The notes below the pieces were generated by a model that did not search any database, was not told where the DNA came from, and saw nothing but the letters and a program-made list of their open reading frames with translations. A DNA stretch of 64,000 nt from an uncultured Gammaproteobacteria bacterium. Lineage in GTDB: Bacteria; Patescibacteriota; Patescibacteriia; UBA2591; CAYTBZ01. The stretch is taken from NCBI GenBank assembly GCA_964436275.1, contig CAYTBZ010000002.1, positions 13,660-77,659 of the forward strand. Reading direction: 5' to 3'. Below, piece after piece: positions 1,385 to 64,000 of this stretch (positions are counted from its first letter, which is position 1; every line of letters starts with the position of its first letter). Made by a program: the position numbers and the translations under genes.

Positions 1385-1420
1385 TTGTTTAAAATTATTT
1401 GTTTTGTTATTATTTTAGAA

Positions 1421-1636
1421 ATGAAGAAAAGAATTACAGAAAAAACAATTTTAGCCGAAGTTTTAAGGATTGAGGGGAGTAAAGAAATTTTAGAAAAATA
1501 TAATGTCCCTTGCCTTTTTTGTCCTTTTGCTCTTTTAGAAGCAAATAATTTAACTCTTGGTCAAATTGCTGAAATGTATGAATTAAATTTATCTGGGTTG
1601 TTAAAAGAATTAAATCAACTGAAAAAGAAAAAATAA
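1421..1636 (+). CDS. Small DUF1858-like protein (putative disulfide oxidoreductase domain)
   Basis: MKKRITEKTILAEVLRIEGSKEILEKYNVPCLFCPF...IAEMYELN resembles DUF1858. The ORF-track start at 1370 (TTG) overlaps the terminator hairpin, so the ATG at 1421 is preferred. Confidence 0.4.
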   Translation: MKKRITEKTILAEVLRIEGSKEILEKYNVPCLFCPFALLEANNLTLGQIAEMYELNLSGLLKELNQLKKKK

Positions 1637-5797: not shown

Positions 5798-6064
5798 ATG
5801 GATTCTCTAAAAGAGATAATTGAATTGCTAAAGAGAACGGGAGATAAATTTATTCTTTTAAATGAAGGGAAACCGATTGGAGTGATAATGACCTTTGAAG
5901 ATTATAATGATTTAATTTTTACCAAAAGCGGAGTATCTGACTTGACAGAAGAAGAATTGCTCAATAAAATAAACAGAGAAATTGCTATATGGAAAGCAAG
6001 TCAAGATAAAGAGAAGATTGAGAAGTTTGATCTATATAGTGGTTTTAAAAAAATTAATAACTAA
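5798..6064 (+). CDS. Hypothetical small protein inserted between fusA and tuf
   Basis: 88-aa ORF. The segment FILLNEGKPIGVIMTFEDYNDL weakly resembles the Phd/YefM antitoxin fold. No adjacent toxin. Confidence 0.35.
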   Translation: MDSLKEIIELLKRTGDKFILLNEGKPIGVIMTFEDYNDLIFTKSGVSDLTEEELLNKINREIAIWKASQDKEKIEKFDLYSGFKKINN

Positions 6065-18296: not shown

Positions 18297-18329
18297 ACTG
18301 TTCCTAATGGTCTTTAGTTTTTTATTATA

Positions 18330-18350
18330 AAGCCCTTCTGGGCTTTTTTA
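18330..18350 (+). terminator. Rho-independent terminator after secY (AAGCCC-ttct-GGGCTT followed by T6)
   Basis: Stem, loop and U-run located 34 nt past the secY stop. Confidence 0.65.
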
Positions 18351-18366
18351 CTTTTAGAATAATTGA

Positions 18367-18375
18367 TGATAAAAT
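18367..18375 (+). promoter_or_regulatory. Extended -10 promoter TGATAAAAT placed 6 nt before the adk ATG (leaderless transcript predicted)
   Basis: TGnTAAAAT at 18367-18375, 6 nt, then the ATG at 18382. No SD sequence. Confidence 0.5.
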
Positions 18376-18381
18376 AAAAAA

Positions 18382-19044
18382 ATGAGTAAAAATAGTAAAA
18401 AATTAAGAATTGTCTTGCTTGGAGCCCCGAGTTCTGGCAAGGGTACTCAAGCCGAACTTCTCTCTCAAAAACTTGGTTTGAAACATTTAGCCAGTGGCGA
18501 TATTTTTCGTCAAGAAGTGAAAAAGAAAAGTGAATTAGGGAAAGCAATAGAAGATTATTTAAAAAAAGGTAAGTTAGTCCCTGATGAATTAGTTAATAAA
18601 GTAATAATTTCAAAAATTAGAAAGACAAAGAAGGGGATAATTTTGGATGGCTATCCGCGGGATTTAACTCAAGCAAAATTTTTAGAAAAAAATTTTCCCA
18701 CTGATTTAGTTTTGGAAATAAAAATTTCAAATAAAGAGGCGCTAAAGAGAATTACTGGCCGACGAGTTTGTTCTTATTGCGGAGCAGTTTATCATTTAAA
18801 ATATAAACCACCGAAAAAGAAAGGAATTTGCGATATTTGTGGTCATAAATTAGTCCAGAGAGACGATGATAGAAGGGAAATAGCAGAAAAAAGATTGAAA
18901 CTCTATCATCAGACAATAAAGCCAATAACTAAATTTTATAAGAGAGAAGATAAACTTTTTATCATTAATGGAGAGCAATCTATTAAAAAAGTTTTTCAAG
19001 ATATTTTAAAGATTGTCTTGAGAAAGAAAGATGAAAAGAAATAA
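18382..19044 (+). CDS. adk: Adenylate kinase (Zn-lid type)
   Basis: P-loop GAPSSGKGTQ, ILDGYPRD, and a lid CSYCG...CDICG. Confidence 0.9.
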   Translation: MSKNSKKLRIVLLGAPSSGKGTQAELLSQKLGLKHLASGDIFRQEVKKKSELGKAIEDYLKKGKLVPDELVNKVIISKIRKTKKGIILDGYPRDLTQAKFLEKNFPTDLVLEIKISNKEALKRITGRRVCSYCGAVYHLKYKPPKKKGICDICGHKLVQRDDDRREIAEKRLKLYHQTIKPITKFYKREDKLFIINGEQSIKKVFQDILKIVLRKKDEKK

Positions 19045-19699
19045 TTTTAACATTATTCTAATTGGACCACCCGGAGCGGGTAAGGGTACTCAAGCTAATC
19101 TTTTGAAGGACAAATATAATTTAGAGCATCTTGAACCGGGAGATATGTTGCGAGAAATCATTCAGCGACAAGGAAGATTAGGAAAAAAAATTTCTCGGAT
19201 AGTTAATCAGGGAAAATTGGTTCCGACTTTTTTAATAATGAATTTAATTAAATTAAGAATTCAATCAATAAGGGAGGATCAAGGTATTATTTTTGACGGA
19301 AGTCCAAGAAGGTTACGGGAGGCAATTTTTTTGGAAAAATTATTAAAAAAATTTTCACGAAAGATTAACTATGTTTTTTATCTAAAAGTAAGCGAAGAGG
19401 AAAGTATAAAAAGATTATTAAGAAGAAGGACCTGCCAAAAATGCGACCGGACTTTTACTATTGGTAGAGATATTTCTCCAGAAGAGAAATATTGTCCTCT
19501 TTGCGGAGGAAAACTTTACCAGAGAAAAGATGATACTCTGCCAAAAATTAAAAAAAGATGGAAAGTTTATTTAAAAGAAACACTGCCGGTGGTCAAATAC
19601 TTTTCTCAAAAGAAGAAAATTTTTTATCAGATAGATGGAGAGCAATCAATTGAAAAAGTTTTTATTGATATCACTGGTATTATTGAAAAAATTAGTTAA
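19031..19699 (+). CDS. Adenylate kinase paralog (second tandem copy, Zn-lid type)
   Basis: GPPGAGKGTQ, GDMLR, and a lid CQKCD...CPLCG. Overlaps the first adk by 14 nt. Confidence 0.85.
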   Translation: MKRNNFNIILIGPPGAGKGTQANLLKDKYNLEHLEPGDMLREIIQRQGRLGKKISRIVNQGKLVPTFLIMNLIKLRIQSIREDQGIIFDGSPRRLREAIFLEKLLKKFSRKINYVFYLKVSEEESIKRLLRRRTCQKCDRTFTIGRDISPEEKYCPLCGGKLYQRKDDTLPKIKKRWKVYLKETLPVVKYFSQKKKIFYQIDGEQSIEKVFIDITGIIEKIS

Positions 19700-20874: not shown

Positions 20875-21984
20875 ATGATTTATCTTCTTATCTTTATCTG
20901 TTCAACAATTCTTTCTTTTTTTCTTACTTTTTTAGTTAAGAATTTTGCTCAAAAAAGAAAAATACTTGATTATCCCGAAAGAGCGCCCCAAAGAAAAATT
21001 CATACTCGTCCTATTCCCTTATTAGGCGGTTTGGCTATCTTTTTCTCTTTTTTTATCATTTTGTTTATTCTTGGTCTTGTTAGGCCTTCTCTTTTTCAGG
21101 CTATTCCTCTAAAAAAAATTTTAGGAATATTTGTCGGAAGTATTTTTATTATGGTCGGAGGTTATTTAGATGACAAGTATAATCTCAAGCCCTCACAACA
21201 GATAATTTGGCCTATTTTGGCTGTTTTGACGGTGATTGCTGCTGGAATTGGAGTTGATTACGTAACTAATCCTTTTGGCGGAGTGATTCATTTAGATAAA
21301 TATAAATTTTTTCTTTTTTCTTTTCGGGGTATTCCTTATTATTTTACTTTATTTGCTGATATTTTTACCTTTGTTTGGTTAATGACAATTATTTACGCTA
21401 CTAAATTTTTGGATGGTTTAGACGGCTTAGTTTCTGGTTTAGGAGTAATTGGTGGGGTTATTATTGCTTTTCTTTGTCTTTTTACCAAATTTTTTCAACC
21501 AGAAGTTGCTCTTATTTCTTTAATTTTTTCCGGTGCTTGTTTGGGCTTTTTATTTCTTAATTTTCATCCAGCCAAGATATTTTTAGGAGAAGGGGGCTCG
21601 GTTTTTTGTGGTTTTATTCTAGGCAATTTAGCTATAATTTCTGGCGGAAAAATTGCTACTGCTCTTTTAGTTTTGGCTATCCCTATTTTAGATTTAATTT
21701 GGGTTATTATAAGGCGGATTTTTAAAGAAAAAAAAGCCCCTTGGTTAGCCGACAAAAAACATCTCCATTTTCGTTTATTAGATTTCGGTCTTTCTCATCG
21801 TCAGGCAGTTCTTTTTCTTTATTTGATTGCTTTATTTTTTGGTTTATTAACTCTTTTTTTAAAAAGTTGGCAAAAACTTATTACTCTTTTAGTTTTAATT
21901 TGTCTTGTTTTTTTCCTTTTTTGGCTAATCAATCATTCTCTAAAAAATAAAAATAAACAGATTTCTAATAAAAAGGCACCTTAA
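20875..21984 (+). CDS. Glycosyltransferase family 4 (MraY/WecA family) UDP-HexNAc:undecaprenyl-phosphate sugar-1-phosphate transferase, WecA/TagO-like
   Basis: DYPERAPQRKIHTRPIPLLGGLAIF and FLDGLDGL motifs in a polytopic membrane protein. Confidence 0.8.
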   Translation: MIYLLIFICSTILSFFLTFLVKNFAQKRKILDYPERAPQRKIHTRPIPLLGGLAIFFSFFIILFILGLVRPSLFQAIPLKKILGIFVGSIFIMVGGYLDDKYNLKPSQQIIWPILAVLTVIAAGIGVDYVTNPFGGVIHLDKYKFFLFSFRGIPYYFTLFADIFTFVWLMTIIYATKFLDGLDGLVSGLGVIGGVIIAFLCLFTKFFQPEVALISLIFSGACLGFLFLNFHPAKIFLGEGGSVFCGFILGNLAIISGGKIATALLVLAIPILDLIWVIIRRIFKEKKAPWLADKKHLHFRLLDFGLSHRQAVLFLYLIALFFGLLTLFLKSWQKLITLLVLICLVFFLFWLINHSLKNKNKQISNKKAP

Positions 21985-25122: not shown

Positions 25123-25257
25123 TTTTCTTTTTTATTTATTCTGGTATATCTTATCTTAATGATAAAATTTTATCAAGAGGAGTTTTACACAAATTGTCCA
25201 CTTTACCTATTGTTTTTTTAAAAAGGATTTAATATAATTTATTTAAACTTTGTCTAA

Positions 25258-25328
25258 GCCCCCGTAGCTCAATGGTAGAGCAGTGGCCTTTTAAGCCATT
25301 GATTAGGGTTCGATTCCCTACGGGGGTA
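25258..25328 (+). tRNA. tRNA-Lys (anticodon UUU)
   Basis: Cloverleaf with a GCCCCCG acceptor arm (G1·U pair), D arm GCTC/GAGC, anticodon arm GTGGC-cTTTTaa-GCCAT and a TTCGATT T-loop. No encoded CCA. Confidence 0.85.
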
Positions 25329-25335
25329 TTTTTTA

Positions 25336-25344
25336 TGATATAAT
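25336..25344 (+). promoter_or_regulatory. Extended -10 TGATATAAT placed 6 nt before the ATPase ATG (leaderless)
   Basis: TGATATAAT at 25336-25344, then ATAAAT, then the ATG at 25351. Confidence 0.45.
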
Positions 25345-28038: not shown

Positions 28039-28075
28039 TTTTTATTTTTTGGTTTAAAAAATTGTGCTATAATTA

Positions 28076-29321: not shown

Positions 29322-30614
29322 ATGAAGATATTTATTAAAGATATTGCTCAATTTAAAGGCAAAAAAGTCACTCTTTGTGGTTGGATATTTAATTTTCGTT
29401 CCTCAGGGGGAATTTATTTCCTCCAGATAAGAGACGGCTCGGGATTTATTCAGGCAGTTGTAGATAGAAGTAAGGTGGAGAAAAAGACATGGGAAATTTG
29501 TCAAAAAATTAGTTTAGAAACATCAGCAGTTATTGAAGGGAAGGTTAGTCAACATCCAACTAAAAAGGAAATTTTTGAAATCCAGGTTGAGAAAATTAAA
29601 ATTATTCAAATTGCTGATAGATATCCTCTTGGAAAAAAATCACATGGCCCAGAATTTTTACTAGACCATCGACATTTATGGCTGCGTTCTAAAAGACAAT
29701 GGGCAATTCAAAAAATTCGCTATACATTAATTAAGGCAACCTATCAATGGTTGACCAATCATTACTTTATTAAAATAGATGCTCCAATTCTCACGCCAAT
29801 CGCTTGTGAAGGGACAACCACTTTATTTGGTTTGAAATACTTTGATTTGGGTAAGGCCTATCTTTCTCAATCTGGCCAACTTTACCTAGAGGCAGCTATT
29901 TTTGCCCATAATCGTGTTTTTGATTTTGGTCCAGTTTTCCGAGCAGAAAAATCAAAGACAAGAAGGCACTTAACAGAATTTTGGATGATGGATGCTGAAA
30001 TGGCTTTTGTCGAACATCAGGAGAATATGAAATTTCAGGAAAAATTGATTGTCTATCTAGTTAAAGAAGTTTTAAAAAATAACCAGAAAGAATTAGAAAT
30101 TTTGGAAAGAGATATTGAACCATTAAAGAAAATCAAACCGCCGTTTCCTAGGATTACTTATCAGGAAGCAATTGAAAAATTAAAGAAAAAAGGAGTAAAA
30201 ATAAAATACGGAGATGATTTTGGGGGAGACGAAGAGACCATTCTTTCTCAACTTTATGATAGACCATTATTTATAGAAAAATATCCGGCAAAATTAAAAG
30301 CATTTTATATGAAGCCAGACCCTAAGGATAAAAAGTTAGTTTTAAATGATGATTTATTAGCCCCTGAAGGATACGGAGAAATAATTGGCGGTTCTCAACG
30401 CGAAGAGGATTATCAAAACTTATTAAAACGTTTAAAAGAAAATAATTTGTCTCCTAAAGAATTTCAGTGGTATTTAGATTTAAGAAAATACGGCTCTGTT
30501 CCTCATTCAGGTTTTGGCTATGGTTTAGAAAGAATAGTTGCTTGGCTTTGCGGATTAAAACATGTAAGAGAAGCCATACCTTTTCCAAGATTGCTTAATC
30601 GCTTAAGACCATAA
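29322..30614 (+). CDS. asnS: Asparaginyl-tRNA synthetase (class IIb)
   Basis: Motif 2 FRAEKSKTRRHLTEFWMMDAEMAF and motif 3 GFGYGLERIVAWLCG. 430 aa ending in ...RP. Confidence 0.8.
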   Translation: MKIFIKDIAQFKGKKVTLCGWIFNFRSSGGIYFLQIRDGSGFIQAVVDRSKVEKKTWEICQKISLETSAVIEGKVSQHPTKKEIFEIQVEKIKIIQIADRYPLGKKSHGPEFLLDHRHLWLRSKRQWAIQKIRYTLIKATYQWLTNHYFIKIDAPILTPIACEGTTTLFGLKYFDLGKAYLSQSGQLYLEAAIFAHNRVFDFGPVFRAEKSKTRRHLTEFWMMDAEMAFVEHQENMKFQEKLIVYLVKEVLKNNQKELEILERDIEPLKKIKPPFPRITYQEAIEKLKKKGVKIKYGDDFGGDEETILSQLYDRPLFIEKYPAKLKAFYMKPDPKDKKLVLNDDLLAPEGYGEIIGGSQREEDYQNLLKRLKENNLSPKEFQWYLDLRKYGSVPHSGFGYGLERIVAWLCGLKHVREAIPFPRLLNRLRP

Positions 30615-30622
30615 TTATATCT

Positions 30623-32011
30623 ATGACTCGGACAAAAATTATTGACACAGTCAAAAAAATCAATGAAAAGGTTCTTCTTAAGGGCTGGGTTCATTCATAT
30701 CGCGATAAAGGGAAGATTATCTTTTTTGAATTAAGGGATGTAAGCGGAATTCTTCAATGTGTTGTTTGGCACGAAGACAAGGAGGTTTTTTCTTCGGCAA
30801 AGAAAATAGGCGTAGAGGATGTTCTTGAGGTTGTAGGAAAAGTGAATCAGCGACCCAAGAATCAAGTTAAAAAAGAGAAAGCCACGGGTATGTTGGAGAT
30901 AATTGTAGAAAAAATTAAAGTTATCAATAAAGCAAAAACATTACCTTTTGAAATCAATAAAGATAAGTTTAAAGAAAAGGTAAAAGAGGAGTTACGTTTA
31001 AAATATCGCTATTTAGATTTACGCCGGCCGAAAATGAAAGAAAAATTGATTTTCCGCCATCGTTTGATAAAATTTATCCGTGATTTTTTTGATCAAAAAG
31101 GGTTTTACGAAATTGAAACACCAATTTTAACTAAATCCACGCCAGAAGGAGCCCGAGATTATTTAGTTCCCTCAAGATTACATCCCGGTAAATTTTATGC
31201 TCTTCCTCAGTCTCCTCAACAATATAAGCAATTATTAATGGTTGCTGGAATAGAAAACTATTTTCAAATTGCTCGTTGCTTTCGTGATGAAGATCCACGC
31301 TCTGACCGTCAACCAGAATTTACTCAATTAGATATGGAGATGAGTTTCTGTCAGCAGAAAGATATCTTGAAGATAAGTGAAGAATTGTTAACAAAAATAG
31401 TAGAGAAGCTTTCGGATTGTCATTTAACCTTTAAACCATTTAAACGGTTGACCTATCAAGAAGCAATAAAAAAGTATGGTACAGATAAGCCAGATTTAAG
31501 AAAAGATAAAAATGACCCTAAAGAATTGGCTTTTGTTTGGATTTTAGATTGGCCCTTATTTTCTTGGGATAAAGAAAGAAAGAGATGGGACCCTTGTCAT
31601 CATATTTTCACCGCTCCTCAAGAGAAAGATATTCCTTTATTAGAAAAAAATCCGGCTAAAGTCCATTCCTGGCAACACGATTTAGTTTGTAATGGTTATG
31701 AAATAGGAGGAGGAAGTTTAAGAATTCATCAGCCTGACTTGCAAAAGAAAATTTTTAAATTAGTAGGAATTTCAGAAAAGGAAGCGGAAAAGAAGTTTGG
31801 TCATTTATTAGAAGCATTTTCTTATGGAGCCCCGCCTCACGGAGGAATTGCCTTTGGTTTAGATAGATTTTTAATGATTTTGACTGGAGAAACTAATATC
31901 CGTGAAGTTATTCCCTTTCCTAAAACAACTGATGCTCGTGATCCTTTGATGGACTCTCCAAGTGAAGTAGATAAAAAACAACTTAAAGAACTTCATTTAA
32001 AAATTAATTAA
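30623..32011 (+). CDS. aspS: Aspartyl-tRNA synthetase, bacterial-type but lacking the GAD insertion domain
   Basis: FYALPQSPQQYKQLLM, FRDEDPRSDRQPEFTQLDMEMSF and TDKPDLR are followed directly by ...FVWILDWPLF. 462 aa, versus about 590 aa typical. Confidence 0.8.
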   Translation: MTRTKIIDTVKKINEKVLLKGWVHSYRDKGKIIFFELRDVSGILQCVVWHEDKEVFSSAKKIGVEDVLEVVGKVNQRPKNQVKKEKATGMLEIIVEKIKVINKAKTLPFEINKDKFKEKVKEELRLKYRYLDLRRPKMKEKLIFRHRLIKFIRDFFDQKGFYEIETPILTKSTPEGARDYLVPSRLHPGKFYALPQSPQQYKQLLMVAGIENYFQIARCFRDEDPRSDRQPEFTQLDMEMSFCQQKDILKISEELLTKIVEKLSDCHLTFKPFKRLTYQEAIKKYGTDKPDLRKDKNDPKELAFVWILDWPLFSWDKERKRWDPCHHIFTAPQEKDIPLLEKNPAKVHSWQHDLVCNGYEIGGGSLRIHQPDLQKKIFKLVGISEKEAEKKFGHLLEAFSYGAPPHGGIAFGLDRFLMILTGETNIREVIPFPKTTDARDPLMDSPSEVDKKQLKELHLKIN

Positions 32012-36934: not shown

Positions 36935-36943
36935 TGATAAAAT
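36935..36943 (+). promoter_or_regulatory. Extended -10 TGATAAAAT placed 6 nt before the ATG at 36950 (leaderless)
   Basis: Same architecture as the adk promoter. Confidence 0.45.
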
Positions 36944-36949
36944 GTCCTT

Positions 36950-37327
36950 ATGAAACTCTCAAATTTAATTAAGAGATTATTTAGAACAAAACAGCATTAT
37001 TTTTGGCAGGATAAACTCATTTTCTTTCCTGGTATCATAAGTATTATTTTGAATTTTTTTATTTGGCTTTTTCTAATAATCCGGGTAAAATCGCTAAATC
37101 AAATTATACCACTTCATTACAATATTTATTATGGAGTAGATTTTATTGGGCCAAAGACAGAATTATTTAAAATTAATTTATTGGCTTTATTAATTCTTTT
37201 TATCAATTTATTTCTTGCTTTTAAAATATATAAATACGAAAGAATAAATAGTTATTTTCTTCTATTTGCCTCTCTTTTAAGTCAATTAATTTTCTTAATA
37301 TTTTTTATTTCCATTGTTAATCTTTAA
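36950..37327 (+). CDS. Hypothetical membrane protein upstream of mraY
   Basis: 125 aa with 3 predicted TM helices. Confidence 0.45.
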   Translation: MKLSNLIKRLFRTKQHYFWQDKLIFFPGIISIILNFFIWLFLIIRVKSLNQIIPLHYNIYYGVDFIGPKTELFKINLLALLILFINLFLAFKIYKYERINSYFLLFASLLSQLIFLIFFISIVNL

Positions 37328-41334: not shown

Positions 41335-41361
41335 TTTTTTTGTTATTCTAAAATTGGATTT

Positions 41362-42399
41362 ATGGGAAAAACAAAATTTTTTTGGCCAATCATTGGTCAT
41401 AAAAATATTATAAATTATTTAGAAAGTTCTCTAAAAAGAGGAAGGTTAAGTCATGCTTATTTATTCACTGGTCCTTCAGGAGTAGGGAAGACAATTGTGG
41501 CTAATTATTTTATCAAATCTCTTTTTTGCTTAAATAAAGAAAAGATTCCTTGTGAAAGATGTTTGTCTTGTCAGCAAATAGAGAAAGGAATTCACCCTGA
41601 TGTGATTTATTTAAAAAAAGAAAAAGAAAGAAAAGATATTACTATTGGTCAAATTCGTCAATTACAAAAATTTCTTTCTTTATCTCGATTATCTGGTAGC
41701 TATAAAGTTGCTTTAATTCAAGAGGCAGAACTTCTAAATAAAGAGGCAGCAAATTCTTTGTTAAAAACTATTGAAGAGCCAGCAGAAAAAGTGATAATTA
41801 TTTTAATCACCCAAGACATACATCGGATTGTTCCTACAATTGTCTCTCGTTGTCAAGTTATTCGTTTTTATCCCGTTTCTTCAAAAGAAATAGTTAAATT
41901 TTTAGAGAAAAAATATTCTTTAAAAAAGGGAGAGGCAGTCAATTTAGCTAATTTTTCTGGGGGGAGACCGGGGAAAATTATTTCTCTTTTAAATGAAGAA
42001 AGTGATTTTAAAAACTATCAAGAATTAATTGGCAGTTTTCTCAATCTTTTTGAAGAAGATTTGAGAGGACGATTAAAAACGATAAAAGAAATCAGAAGAA
42101 AAGATTTTCTTAATTCTAAGGAAATAAGCAGCCAATTTTTAGAAAAGCAGACCTTTTTTAAAGAAACAGTATCTTTTCTTATAGAGATAATTCGTGATTT
42201 AATTTTAATAAAACTGGATTTATCTTCTTTGCTAAAAAATTATTTTCTTAAAAGCAGATTGAAAAAAGTGGCTGAAAGCTATTCTTTAAAAGGTCTTATT
42301 AACTTACTAAGAGAGACCGAAAAGACAGGAGAATATTTAGAAATGAATGTTAATCCATCCTTGGCAATAGAAAATTTATTACTTAATTTTCAAAAATGA
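41362..42399 (+). CDS. holB: DNA polymerase III delta-prime subunit-like AAA+ clamp-loader protein
   Basis: GPSGVGKT Walker A, a CxxC..C module and the SRCQ sensor. 345 aa. Confidence 0.6.
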   Translation: MGKTKFFWPIIGHKNIINYLESSLKRGRLSHAYLFTGPSGVGKTIVANYFIKSLFCLNKEKIPCERCLSCQQIEKGIHPDVIYLKKEKERKDITIGQIRQLQKFLSLSRLSGSYKVALIQEAELLNKEAANSLLKTIEEPAEKVIIILITQDIHRIVPTIVSRCQVIRFYPVSSKEIVKFLEKKYSLKKGEAVNLANFSGGRPGKIISLLNEESDFKNYQELIGSFLNLFEEDLRGRLKTIKEIRRKDFLNSKEISSQFLEKQTFFKETVSFLIEIIRDLILIKLDLSSLLKNYFLKSRLKKVAESYSLKGLINLLRETEKTGEYLEMNVNPSLAIENLLLNFQK

Positions 42400-44534: not shown

Positions 44535-44576
44535 AACCCCTATCATAGATAGGGGTTTTTGTTTTTAATTTTTTTT
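44535..44576. terminator. Bidirectional terminator AACCCCTAT-catag-ATAGGGGTT followed by T-runs
   Basis: 9-bp stem after gap. Shared with the convergent small ORF. Confidence 0.7.
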
Positions 44577-44699
44577 GCTCGCTTGCTTAGGGGGTTTACT
44601 AAGAGAAAAGAGTAGAATTATAAGAGAGAACCCACTAACACTTATAGCAACGCTTAAGCCAGTCACTATAGCCAGACCTTTAATTCCTGTTAAAATCAT
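44565..44699 (-). CDS. 44-aa hydrophobic small protein (unannotated), strongly expressed by prediction
   Basis: MILTGIKGLAIVTGLSVAISVSGFSLIILLFSLSKPPKQASKKN. RBS GGAGG 5 nt upstream of the ATG, plus a consensus promoter. Confidence 0.5.
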   Translation of the reverse strand: MILTGIKGLAIVTGLSVAISVSGFSLIILLFSLSKPPKQASKKN

Positions 44700-44726
44700 C
44701 TTTTCCTCCTTCTCTAAGTTTATTTT

Positions 44727-44755
44727 ATTATAACATAAAATTATTTTAATGTCAA
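44727..44755 (-). promoter_or_regulatory. Consensus sigma70 promoter TTGACA-17-TATAAT (minus strand) for the 44-aa ORF
   Basis: The reverse complement reads TTGACA ttaaaataattttatgt TATAAT. -35 at 44750-44755 and -10 at 44727-44732. Confidence 0.6.
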
Positions 44756-45325: not shown

Positions 45326-45334
45326 TGTTATAAT
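45326..45334 (+). promoter_or_regulatory. Extended -10 TGTTATAAT placed 7 nt before the argS ATG (leaderless)
   Basis: TGTTATAAT at 45326-45334 and the ATG at 45342. No SD sequence. Confidence 0.45.
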
Positions 45335-45341
45335 TAAAACG

Positions 45342-47210
45342 ATGGCTTATCAAACAGAGAAAATTATTTATACTCTTTCCCAAGATATAAAGAAAATAGT
45401 AGAAACTTTTTATCCTAATTATTCTTGGGAGGATTTTGATTTTTCTTTGACTCAGCCGCCAAGAAAAGAGATGGGGGACTTTTCTTTTGCTTGTTTTAAT
45501 TTGGCTCAAAGAGTAGGGGGAAAACCTGAAGAGATTGCCAGAGTTTTGGCTGAAAAAATTAAGTCATCAAAATTTTTAGAAAGAGTTAATAACGTAGGTC
45601 CTTATTTAAATTTATTTTTAAAAAGGAATATTTTCTTTTCTTTTCTCCTTAAAGATATTTTAAGAAATGGGGAAAGTTATGGGAAAATAAAACTTGGTCA
45701 AGAAAAAATAATGGTTGAATATTCTTCTCCGAATACTAATAAGCCACTTCATTTAGGTCATTTACGAAACGATGTTTTAGGTATGGCTATAAGTAATTTA
45801 TTGGAGAACAGAGGATATAAAGTTATTCGAGCGAATTTAATTAATGACCGTGGAATTCATTTAGGCAAAGTAATGGTCGCCTATCAAATGGCTAAAGAAA
45901 AGAAATGGTTGAGAGCAAGTAAATTATTAGAGCAGAAAATAAAAGGCGACCACTTAGTCGGTAACCTATATGTATTTTTTGAAAAAAAATTAAACGAAGA
46001 GAAGAAAAAATTTTTAAAGAATAAAGGGATTATTTGGGATAAATTAACTAAGACAGAGAAAAAGGAAGTGGAATTAGAGTTCTTTAAAGAATCAAAACTT
46101 TATCAAAAAGCGCAGGAAATGTTAGATAAATGGGAAAAAGGAGACAAAAAAATAAGAAATTTAGCAAAAAAAATCAACCAACTTGCCTTATCTGGCTTAA
46201 AAGAAACTTACCAGAGAACAAAAACTAAGTTTGATAAATGGTATTTTGAAAGCAAAATTTATCAATTAGGTAAAAAAATAATTTACCAGGCATTAAAGAA
46301 AGGGTTATGTTATAAGAATGAAGAGGGAGCAATAGAGATTGATTTAGAAAAATATAATTTGGGAAAGAAAATTCTTGTTCGAAAAGACGGTACCTCGGTC
46401 TATATCACCCAAGACATTGGCTTGGCTAAGAAGAAATTTGATGATTACAATTTGACAAAGTCAATTTATATTGTAGCTAACGAGCAGGACTATCATTTTA
46501 AATTATTATTTAAAATTTTAGAAATTCTAGGTTATTCCTTTGCTAAAAAATGTTATCATCTTTCCTATGGAATGGTTTATTTGCCTGAAGGGAAAATGAA
46601 GTCCCGGGAAGGGAAAGTGGTTGAGGCTGACGAATTGTTGGATAAAATGCACAATTTAGCCAAAAGAGAAATTTTGAAAAGAGAGCAAAAAATTTCTTCT
46701 CAAGAATTAGAAAAAAGAGCAGAAAAAATTGGTCAGGCAGCAATTAAATTTTACTTATTGAATGTTTCTCCTAGTCAAGATATTTTTTTCCTTCCGGAAA
46801 AGTCAATTTCCTTTGACGGGGATAGCGGGCCATATCTTCAATATACTTTTGCTCGAATTAAAAGTATTTTTAGAAAGGGTAAAATAAAAAATTCATTCTT
46901 TTCTTCTCCTATTAAGAAAAATAAATTAAACAAAATAAGTTTAAAAGAGGAAGAATGGGAATTGACTAAATTGATTTACTCTTTTCCCGAGGTAGTAAGA
47001 AAGGCAGCAGATAATTATGCACCAAATTTAGTTACTGAATATCTTTTAAAATTAGCCGCCTGTTTTAACCGATTTTATCAAAAATATCCTGTTTTAAAAG
47101 CGCCTAATCAAGAAGAAAGAGAAATACGTCTTTATTTGATTAAGGGTGTAGAAATTGTTTTAAAAAGGAGTTTTCAATTACTTAATATTGACCTTTGTTC
47201 TAAAATGTGA
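45342..47210 (+). CDS. argS: Arginyl-tRNA synthetase
   Basis: HIGH-type motif PLHLGHLRN. The ORF-track start at 45306 was trimmed to MAYQTEKII. Confidence 0.85.
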   Translation: MAYQTEKIIYTLSQDIKKIVETFYPNYSWEDFDFSLTQPPRKEMGDFSFACFNLAQRVGGKPEEIARVLAEKIKSSKFLERVNNVGPYLNLFLKRNIFFSFLLKDILRNGESYGKIKLGQEKIMVEYSSPNTNKPLHLGHLRNDVLGMAISNLLENRGYKVIRANLINDRGIHLGKVMVAYQMAKEKKWLRASKLLEQKIKGDHLVGNLYVFFEKKLNEEKKKFLKNKGIIWDKLTKTEKKEVELEFFKESKLYQKAQEMLDKWEKGDKKIRNLAKKINQLALSGLKETYQRTKTKFDKWYFESKIYQLGKKIIYQALKKGLCYKNEEGAIEIDLEKYNLGKKILVRKDGTSVYITQDIGLAKKKFDDYNLTKSIYIVANEQDYHFKLLFKILEILGYSFAKKCYHLSYGMVYLPEGKMKSREGKVVEADELLDKMHNLAKREILKREQKISSQELEKRAEKIGQAAIKFYLLNVSPSQDIFFLPEKSISFDGDSGPYLQYTFARIKSIFRKGKIKNSFFSSPIKKNKLNKISLKEEEWELTKLIYSFPEVVRKAADNYAPNLVTEYLLKLAACFNRFYQKYPVLKAPNQEEREIRLYLIKGVEIVLKRSFQLLNIDLCSKM

Positions 47211-47233
47211 TATAATTAAATGATTTAAAAACT

Positions 47234-53769: not shown

Positions 53770-53898
53770 AAAAATTTATTAAATAAAATTTCTCTCAGGA
53801 TTTATTTTTATTATAACACAAAGGGAAATTAAAGAGAATAAGGGAAACTTGCTTTAAATTAGGGGATTTTGTAAGATAAAAAAGATATTAATAATATT

Positions 53899-62086: not shown

Positions 62087-62095
62087 TGATAAAAT
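62087..62095 (+). promoter_or_regulatory. Extended -10 TGATAAAAT upstream of gyrB
   Basis: TGATAAAAT lies 24 nt before the ATG at 62119. No SD sequence. Confidence 0.4.
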
Positions 62096-62100
62096 AATAA

Positions 62101-64000
<1,900 letters not shown>

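Follow-up and report, generated by a model that had tools for sequence, protein, structure and literature searches.

The mRNA of the phage lambda cI gene made from PRM, on which transcription starts at the A of the AUG, is the classic leaderless mRNA of bacteria. In Mycoplasma, promoters depend on a -10 or extended -10 element, and their -35 is poor. The Patescibacteria (Candidate Phyla Radiation, CPR) are mostly uncultured, and to our knowledge almost nothing is known about how they initiate transcription and translation. Leaderless genomes have been defined as group C by a Pribnow box 6-8 nt from the start (GeneMarkS-2, PMC6028130); the group holds 1028 of 4769 bacteria, mostly Actinobacteria and Deinococcus-Thermus (PMC6028130). 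Localization to operon-first rather than internal genes separates this promoter signal from the motif of group B, which is not of the Shine-Dalgarno (SD) type (PMC6028130). Group C genomes with genetic code 11 are almost all high in GC, and the low-GC examples are Mycoplasma, which use code 4 (MetaGeneMark-2 preprint). Here we analyze four genes in a 64-kb stretch of contig CAYTBZ010000002.1 (the window; all coordinates are window positions), each of which has a putative extended -10 promoter box (TGnTAnAAT) 6-7 nt upstream of its ATG. The host has a tiny genome of 32% GC, and its open reading frames (ORFs) are intact under code 11.

Both strands of the window were scanned with a regular expression for TGNTANAAT-N6/7-ATG. 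Only four matches were found, all at real starts of operon-first genes: an adenylate kinase gene (adk1), a P-type ATPase gene, a gene encoding a 125-aa membrane protein, and argS (Table 1). On direct re-reading, the boxes, spacers and ATGs were as an earlier sequence-only reading had given them. The Pfam families of the focal genes are ADK, E1-E2/cation ATPase and ArgRS, and a Pfam search with the 125-aa protein gave no family. The gene for this protein directly precedes a mraY-type Glycos_transf_4 gene and heads a cluster with ftsW and murG. Its box is divergent from rpmA (L27), for which a promoter of its own, TTGACT-17-TAAAAT, predicts a leader of ~24 nt.

We consider it probable that the four boxes are extended -10 promoters which fire at the start codon and produce leaderless mRNAs translated from a 5′-terminal AUG. 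These promoters would be of the sigma-70 type with little or no -35, and their position would make the A of the ATG the base at which RNA polymerase starts, or, for argS, possibly the G one base before it (45341, the seventh base after the hexamer, giving a 1-nt leader). The mRNAs of adk, the ATPase, the 125-aa gene/mraY operon and argS would then have 5′ untranslated regions of 0-1 nt, and ribosome and initiator tRNA would bind the 5′-terminal AUG without SD contact. By this mechanism ~10% (strict box) to 18% (relaxed box) of operon-first genes would be served, the remainder being for the most part SD-less genes, leadered or internal, along with a few that are strongly SD-led. That the boxes fire as promoters, on which exact nucleotide transcription starts and how the mRNAs are translated we infer from the DNA sequence. 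The sequence-only reading had proposed the same arrangement, and the proposal is supported in silico by motif enrichment, restriction to operon-first genes, bimodal spacers, tracking of the ATG in orthologues and the geometry of the predicted transcription start. As in lambda cI, transcription is predicted to start on the A of the AUG and translation to depend on the 5′-terminal AUG; unlike cI, which is a single regulated phage gene, the arrangement recurs here across housekeeping genes.

A TG is found one base upstream of the TAnAAT hexamer (-15/-14) at all four sites, with a -35 that is weak or absent, as expected of extended -10 promoters. The claim that no site has a recognisable -35 held for the ATPase and argS, where no -35 match was seen upstream of the box. 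It is nearly right for the other two as well: adk has TTTACT at 18347-18352 and the 36950 gene TGGAAA, both weak elements matching at 4/6 positions with 17-nt spacing. The predicted promoters are thus of the extended -10, weak -35 type. Like the extended -10 ("TGn") promoters of E. coli and Gram-positive bacteria, in which the TG compensates for a weak or absent -35, they match at no more than 4/6 positions at -35, and unlike such promoters in general, for which leader length is unspecified, they stand at a fixed 6-7 nt from the ATG. An SD is absent at all four sites, as had been noted, and this is trivially true because the box fills the SD space.

Across 49 bacteria with mapped starts, transcription has its modal start at the seventh base after the -10 hexamer (PMC12641261). 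A 6-nt spacer puts the A of the ATG at this base, which supports transcription starting at the ATG, and at three of the four sites the discriminator is of the canonical 6 nt and the seventh base is a purine. The promoters could also be real with a start offset by a few bases, giving a leader of 2-5 nt or a start within the first codons followed by a downstream translation start. The argS spacer of 7 nt and the 8-9 nt found at adk in relatives are in line with such an offset, as is the more variable -10-to-start distance of the only CPR species with mapped starts (PMC12641261). Also to be listed here are Deinococcus deserti mRNAs with one or few 5′ nucleotides, which behave like leaderless ones (PMC4007540). 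The discriminator and purine at three sites argue against an offset, and the conserved N-terminal domains would not survive a shift to any alternative downstream start. We regard an offset start as improbable.

The four ATGs were found to be the true translation starts, in agreement with the database gene calls. In-frame stop codons lie inside the box of adk (TAA at 18370), the ATPase (TGA at 25336) and the 125-aa gene (TAA at 36938), so that an upstream start is impossible for these genes. The Pfam domains begin at residues 12, 7 and 12, which makes a downstream start implausible. For argS, the N-termini of 20 aligned ArgS homologues fall within a few residues of ATG 45342, and the database call also gives 622 aa. 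The alternative argS start GTG 45306, in frame and 12 codons upstream, was ruled out by this alignment. ATG is the start codon in all four genes, and it is so in 90 of 91 genes and hence uninformative for leaderless translation.

For positional statistics, the window, which is part of the 118-kb metagenome contig ena:ERZ27248139:k141_40013, was extended to 81.2 kb with 91 called genes via database look-ups. Window and ENA contig differ by one base at 2620 (T vs C), 2 nt upstream of a TATAAT before rpsL (S12), and again at 21846. Genes with an upstream gap above 25 nt were taken as operon-first (the GeneMarkS-2 rule), giving 38-39 operon-first and 53 internal genes. The strict box is TGNTANAAT and the relaxed box at least 5/6 of TATAAT. 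In dinucleotide-preserving shuffles of the window, 0.22 matches are expected with N6, where 3 were observed (0 of 100 shuffles reached 3), and 0.21 with N7, where 1 was observed. In the 81 kb, 4 of 39 operon-first genes have a strict box at spacer 6-7, and when their 60-nt upstream regions were shuffled the mean was 0.034, with none of 20,000 trials reaching four. Tested against shuffled sequence, the motif is thus in excess both in the window (4 vs 0.43) and, for the 81 kb, in these upstream regions.

These numbers bear on the possibility that, at 32% GC and with compressed intergenic regions, boxes and start codons came to lie side by side by chance. In the 38 upstream regions relaxed -10 matches do occur at ~1-2 per spacer bin, the coding region of FtsX contains one strict match, and single strict matches are seen at ORF starts in unrelated phyla at ~5 per Mb. 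Composition-matched and dinucleotide shuffles both argue against chance, as does the density, which at 49 per Mb is ~10 times as high as in the control loci. The four matches all fall on operon-first genes, and the geometry recurs at orthologues. Chance is thus a very improbable explanation.

The distance between box and start codon is not evenly distributed. The strict boxes within 60 nt of operon-first starts (n = 10) have spacers of 2, 6, 6, 6, 7, 23, 26, 30, 40 and 44 nt, and at least four boxes in the two bins expected beforehand (6 and 7) has a binomial P of 3.8e-4. Spacers 8-16 are empty for the strict box, and the next is the DJ-1 box at 17 nt (the gap of that gene is 23 nt, so it is counted as internal). 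Such bimodal spacers are the signature expected of leaderless vs leadered transcripts, if the boxes are promoters. At spacer 6-7 the strict box is found before 4/38 operon-first and 0/53 internal genes (Fisher P = 0.028), and the relaxed box before 7/38 and 2/53 (P = 0.031). Depending on the box, 10% (strict) to 18% (relaxed) of the 38-39 operon starts in the 81 kb are therefore preceded by it at this spacing. The relaxed box, which among operon-first genes also has its peak at spacer 6-7, adds ATG 1421, ATG 41362 and ATG 67258, the last beyond the window.

Since internal genes of operons are never preceded by the strict box, it behaves as a promoter and not as a ribosome-binding site. A reading of the box as a non-SD ribosome-binding site was ruled out by this absence.

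The surroundings of adk and the ATPase leave little space upstream of the boxes. The intrinsic terminator after secY, moderate with 7 pairs, ends ~15 nt before the adk box, and tRNA-Lys ends 8 nt before the ATPase box. Another promoter or leader would not fit in at these two sites. In an Rfam scan of the window tRNA-Lys was the sole match, and no leader RNA (T-box, r-protein leader, riboswitch) was found upstream of genes.

The genes could nevertheless be expressed on leadered transcripts from further upstream, by secY read-through (adk), co-transcription with tRNA-Lys (ATPase) or farther promoters (the 125-aa gene and argS), with the box an A/T-rich, unstructured translation enhancer of the S1 or non-SD type, comparable to the group B motifs of Bacteroidetes, or inert. 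As most genes lack an SD (12 of 92 have a core), some SD-independent leadered initiation must exist, and the A-rich sequence upstream of most starts fits such an enhancer. Between the tRNA and the ATPase ATG the distance is 22 nt, and the moderate adk terminator could be read through. Internal genes need ribosome recruitment too, though, and the strict box is missing before 53 of 53. The TG dinucleotide and the exact hexamer are features of promoters, and the same box is found 17-107 nt from other starts. Also against an enhancer are the spacer, which keeps to 6-7 nt without spreading, and the way in which the box accompanies the ATG in orthologues whose N-termini are shifted. We consider leadered expression of this kind unlikely.

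This last point comes from loci of relatives, which were retrieved one at a time by exact-protein look-ups and are labelled L0xx. The best SecY matches have 79% identity, those in Kuenen-, Magasanik-, Falkow- and Buchananbacteria ~64-68%, and ArgS matches peak at 52%; judged by such protein matches, the host is an ABY1-type Patescibacterium (CPR). The 125-aa gene, divergent from rpmA and upstream of mraY, has homologues in other Patescibacteria. Its orthologue in L090 (37% identity, E = 8e-12, divergent from rpmA) is preceded by the box as TGATATAAT-N7-ATG, and that of the L098-L100 lineage (35% identity, before mraY) as TGATAATAT-N6-ATG. The N-termini of these proteins are shorter than that of the 125-aa protein by 14 residues (L090) and 9 residues (L098-L100) while the spacer is still 6-7 nt, and thus the box has moved together with the ATG. 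In these sequence comparisons, tracking of the shifted ATG is the strongest argument for selection on the box-ATG juxtaposition itself. The fmt gene of L090 also has TGATATAAT-N7-ATG. The organism is present in ERZ27248139, ERZ27248458, ERZ27248120, SRR7051295, SRR7051285 and JGI 3300021492. Contigs of the same species from other samples are identical around adk and hence uninformative.

The density of strict matches at ORF starts was 49 per Mb on this contig, 19 in the fetched Patescibacteria loci and ~5 in unrelated phyla (1.2 Mb). The control loci in the latter (Spirochaetes, Bacteroidetes and DPANN archaea) were obtained from matches to the most conserved peptides of an ArgS alignment, which did not pick up relatives, and served as negative controls only. 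Single TGNTANAAT-N6/7-ATG sites in them are L027:356, L029:2900(-), L032:13249, L059:18849, L066:3187 and L009:10159. They lie in Treponema and other Spirochaetes, Bacteroidales and Emticicia, phyla not known for leaderless genes, and by their sequence look like genuine isolated leaderless genes.

The box itself is not confined to the four sites. We counted 40 copies of TGNTANAAT vs 18.5 ± 3.7 expected, and 13 of the exact TGATAAAAT vs 3.1 expected. From this abundance the box is predicted to be the general -10 element of a genome with a canonical promoter consensus. Elsewhere it is found 17-107 nt from starts, sometimes with a perfect TTGACA-17, and the copy at 107 nt precedes an SD-led ORF. 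Leadered comparators are listed in Table 1. The box upstream of gyrB at 62087 is present as claimed, with the added correction that the gyrB ATG lies at 62119. The perfect palindrome that the sequence-only reading reported upstream of dnaB was also found, at 25160-25175 and not at 25158-25173. Its minus-strand box is 44 nt before the dnaB ATG (25122) and its plus-strand copy faces tRNA-Lys. The palindrome, with dnaB (-) on one side and tRNA-Lys (+) on the other, has the look of a bidirectional promoter of symmetric build. A TATAAT closer to tRNA-Lys is present at ~25233.

The same two observations, the 13 copies of the exact 9-mer and the one pair of copies that forms a 16-nt perfect palindrome, could be read differently: TGATAAAAT could be the operator half-site of a dimeric regulator, and its position over the start codon would then serve repression and not promoter function. 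Only a single palindromic site was seen, for which a pair of divergent -10 boxes that overlap is an equally good explanation. Moreover, the four sites vary at the N positions exactly as TGnTAnAAT would (TGATATAAT, TGTTATAAT), and the same box has perfect TTGACA-17 partners elsewhere. An operator is in our opinion an extremely improbable explanation, and none of the alternatives explains the operon-first restriction, the fixed spacer and the orthologue tracking together.

Table 1. Coordinates of the four focal sites and their genes, of further candidates, and of flanking and comparator elements in the window.
Feature	Position	Strand	Remarks
adk1 extended -10 box TGATAAAAT (putative)	18367-18375	+	spacer AAAAAA (6 nt), ATG 18382
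P-type ATPase extended -10 box TGATATAAT (putative)	25336-25344	+	spacer ATAAAT (6 nt), ATG 25351
125-aa gene/mraY operon extended -10 box TGATAAAAT (putative)	36935-36943	+	spacer GTCCTT (6 nt), ATG 36950
argS extended -10 box TGTTATAAT (putative)	45326-45334	+	spacer TAAAACG (7 nt), ATG 45342
adk1 coding sequence, 220 aa	18382-19044	+	ATG 18382 = predicted transcription start, 7th base after hexamer
P-type cation ATPase coding sequence, 895 aa	25351-28038	+	ATG 25351 = predicted transcription start
125-aa membrane protein coding sequence	36950-37327	+	ATG = predicted transcription start
argS coding sequence, 622 aa	45342-47210	+	predicted start G 45341 or A 45342, 0-1 nt leader
Additional candidate TGTTATTAT-N7-ATG 1421	1405-1423	+	71-aa ORF 1421-1636
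Weaker candidate TAAAAT (no TG)-N7-ATG 41362	41349-41364	+	DNA pol III delta'-like gene; 27-nt gap after previous gene
Intrinsic terminator after secY	18329-18352	+	stem AAAGCCC/GGGCTTT (18329-18346) + T-run
tRNA-Lys(UUU)	25258-25328	+	T-arm/acceptor stem + T-run terminator-like
Leadered comparator DJ-1/PfpI, TTGACC-17-TGATATAAT	47208-47216	+	17 nt before ATG 47234; overlaps argS stop codon
Leadered comparator gyrB, TGATAAAAT	62087-62095	+	23 nt before ATG 62119
Leadered SD-led comparator, perfect TTGACA-17-TGTTATAAT	44727-44735	-	26 nt before ATG 44700
Leadered comparator corA, TGTTATAAT	53810-53818	-	40 nt before ATG 53769; no SD
Perfect palindrome TGATAAAATTTTATCA, 16 nt	25160-25175	both	two back-to-back extended -10 boxes overlapping by 2 nt

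SD cores of at least 4 nt were found before 12 of 92 genes (6/39 operon-first and 6/53 internal), a share that does not exceed the 15% background of random 17-mers. A strong GGAGG precedes only a few: tuf, the ORFs 779, 22362(-) and 45188(-), and the small ORF starting at 44700(-). Upstream sequences thus bear out the claim that tuf and several minus-strand ORFs are SD-led. Sequence before most starts is A-rich, and the genome seems, as far as its upstream regions indicate, to be largely SD-independent. It had been suggested that the organism mixes two initiation modes. SD-led and candidate leaderless starts do both exist, and the description is incomplete, as most genes are neither; we therefore distinguish three classes, namely rare genes with a strong SD, an SD-less majority that is leadered or internal, and the leaderless candidates. 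The ORF starting at 44700 is an uncalled small ORF (44563-44700, -) of ~45 aa, a predicted membrane peptide with the SD GAAGGAGG and a promoter at 44727-44755, located between two terminators.

Of the candidates added by the relaxed box, ATG 1421 concerns a gene whose database call (1370-1636) has TTG 1370 as its start, a codon that falls within the upstream gene's terminator hairpin. With TGTTATTAT-N7 in front of it, ATG 1421 is from its sequence context the more plausible start. The adk1 gene is the first of two adenylate kinase paralogues in tandem (18382-19699, 14-nt overlap). The tandem is also present in L096, and L093 and L095 carry a single adk. The secY-adk spacer, 85 nt in the window, is 606 nt in L093 (1470-2075) and 333 nt in L095 (11273-11605), with no called gene; a small ORF or a non-coding RNA could be encoded there. 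Two class-II (tRNA-synt_2, Asp/Asn/Lys-type) aminoacyl-tRNA synthetase paralogues are likewise in tandem at 29322-32011, and a PhdYeFM-type antitoxin-like gene lies between fusA and tuf (5798-6064) in the str operon region. A sigma-70-family gene was found beyond the window at L088:22004-22802 (~71210-72008). It starts at region 1.2, has no region 1.1 and a weak region 3 match. This gene, at the contig end and the only one of its family seen on the contig, may not encode the primary sigma. In an alignment made by eye, the E. coli region 3.0 residues that contact the extended -10 TG (PVHMIE) would correspond to PPYILN here.

Several observations weigh against the four mRNAs being leaderless. 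Only 81 kb and 39 operon starts make up the sample, and in this AT-rich genome relaxed -10 matches are frequent. The fifth strict match, at window coordinate -903 in the extension, belongs to the coding sequence of FtsX, in which it stands for GIGIMNIM, and is coincidental. A strict box TGCTATAAT (28065-28073) stands only 2 nt before the ATG of an AtpI-like (PF09527) gene, too close for a leaderless start; it may be due to chance or serve as promoter of another unit. For the four genes, predicted 5′ structure (minimum free energy, first 42 nt) is no lower than for others. Read-through from secY (adk) or co-transcription with tRNA-Lys (ATPase) could add leadered transcripts. Among relatives, the L097 orthologue of the 125-aa protein (39% identity) does not keep the geometry, its best box being at 12 nt, and in the two closest relatives (SecY 79% and 70%) the TATAAT of adk stands 8 and 9 nt from the start, which predicts a very short leader there and not none. 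Finally, L096, a relative of identical gene order with 46% GC and a SecY identity of 69%, has very clear TGCTATAAT/TGCTAAAAT-type promoters, and in ~ten operon-first regions inspected by eye its recognisable promoters are all leadered, ~21-37 nt. The leaderless geometry is thus patchy and not clade-wide.

Like the group C genomes of Mycobacterium tuberculosis and D. deserti, the window has a -10 box 6-8 nt before operon-first starts (here 6, 6, 6 and 7; PMC6028130, PMC4007540), no SD at those genes, and other genes that are leadered. It differs from group C in several respects: the host is a low-GC (32%), code-11 Patescibacterium, the box is the full extended -10 TGnTAnAAT vs a minimal TANNNT, the operon share, estimated at 10-18% from 81 kb, is lower than the 25-50% typical of group C, and the genes that are not leaderless mostly lack an SD. 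With the Mycoplasma genomes of group C it has in common low GC, a reduced genome and predicted leaderless transcription, but these belong to another phylum, do not use code 11 and have a higher predicted leaderless fraction (30-60%). The group B motif of Bacteroidetes (e.g., TAAAAA) is similarly A/T-rich, a few nucleotides upstream and found in genomes with little SD use (PMC6028130); unlike that motif, which stands upstream of every gene, also within operons, our box is found before 0/53 internal genes and also far upstream of leadered genes. On present sequence evidence we are thus probably dealing with the known group C architecture in an unusual new host.

In the searchable literature we found no paper linking leaderless mRNAs or SD use with CPR, Patescibacteria or Saccharibacteria, and incidental mentions only. 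The advance is incremental, as leaderless mRNAs and their inference from sequence are already established in other phyla. It is conceivable, if rather doubtful, that leaderless extended -10 initiation and near-absent SD use together form a lineage-wide, selectively maintained strategy in an ABY1-type sub-clade. We keep this in view because box and start codon stay together in orthologues of only 35-39% identity; the one syntenic relative in which all recognisable promoters are leadered (L096) weakens it. Such a strategy might be linked to reduced ribosomes and a minimal translation apparatus, and, if true, a substantial leaderless transcriptome would here be described for the first time in a bacterial group with low GC and code 11.

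For the annotation of CPR metagenome-assembled genomes, the promoter-ATG rule improves start calls, as exemplified by TTG 1370 within a terminator and the rejected GTG extension of argS. The four sites are also compact, well-defined predicted promoters for work on these organisms. If the reading of the boxes as promoters of leaderless mRNAs is confirmed, one in six to ten operons would be leaderless, including housekeeping ones (adk, argS and the mraY cell-wall operon). Together with the SD-less majority, these operons would give the organism an initiation repertoire unlike that of model bacteria.

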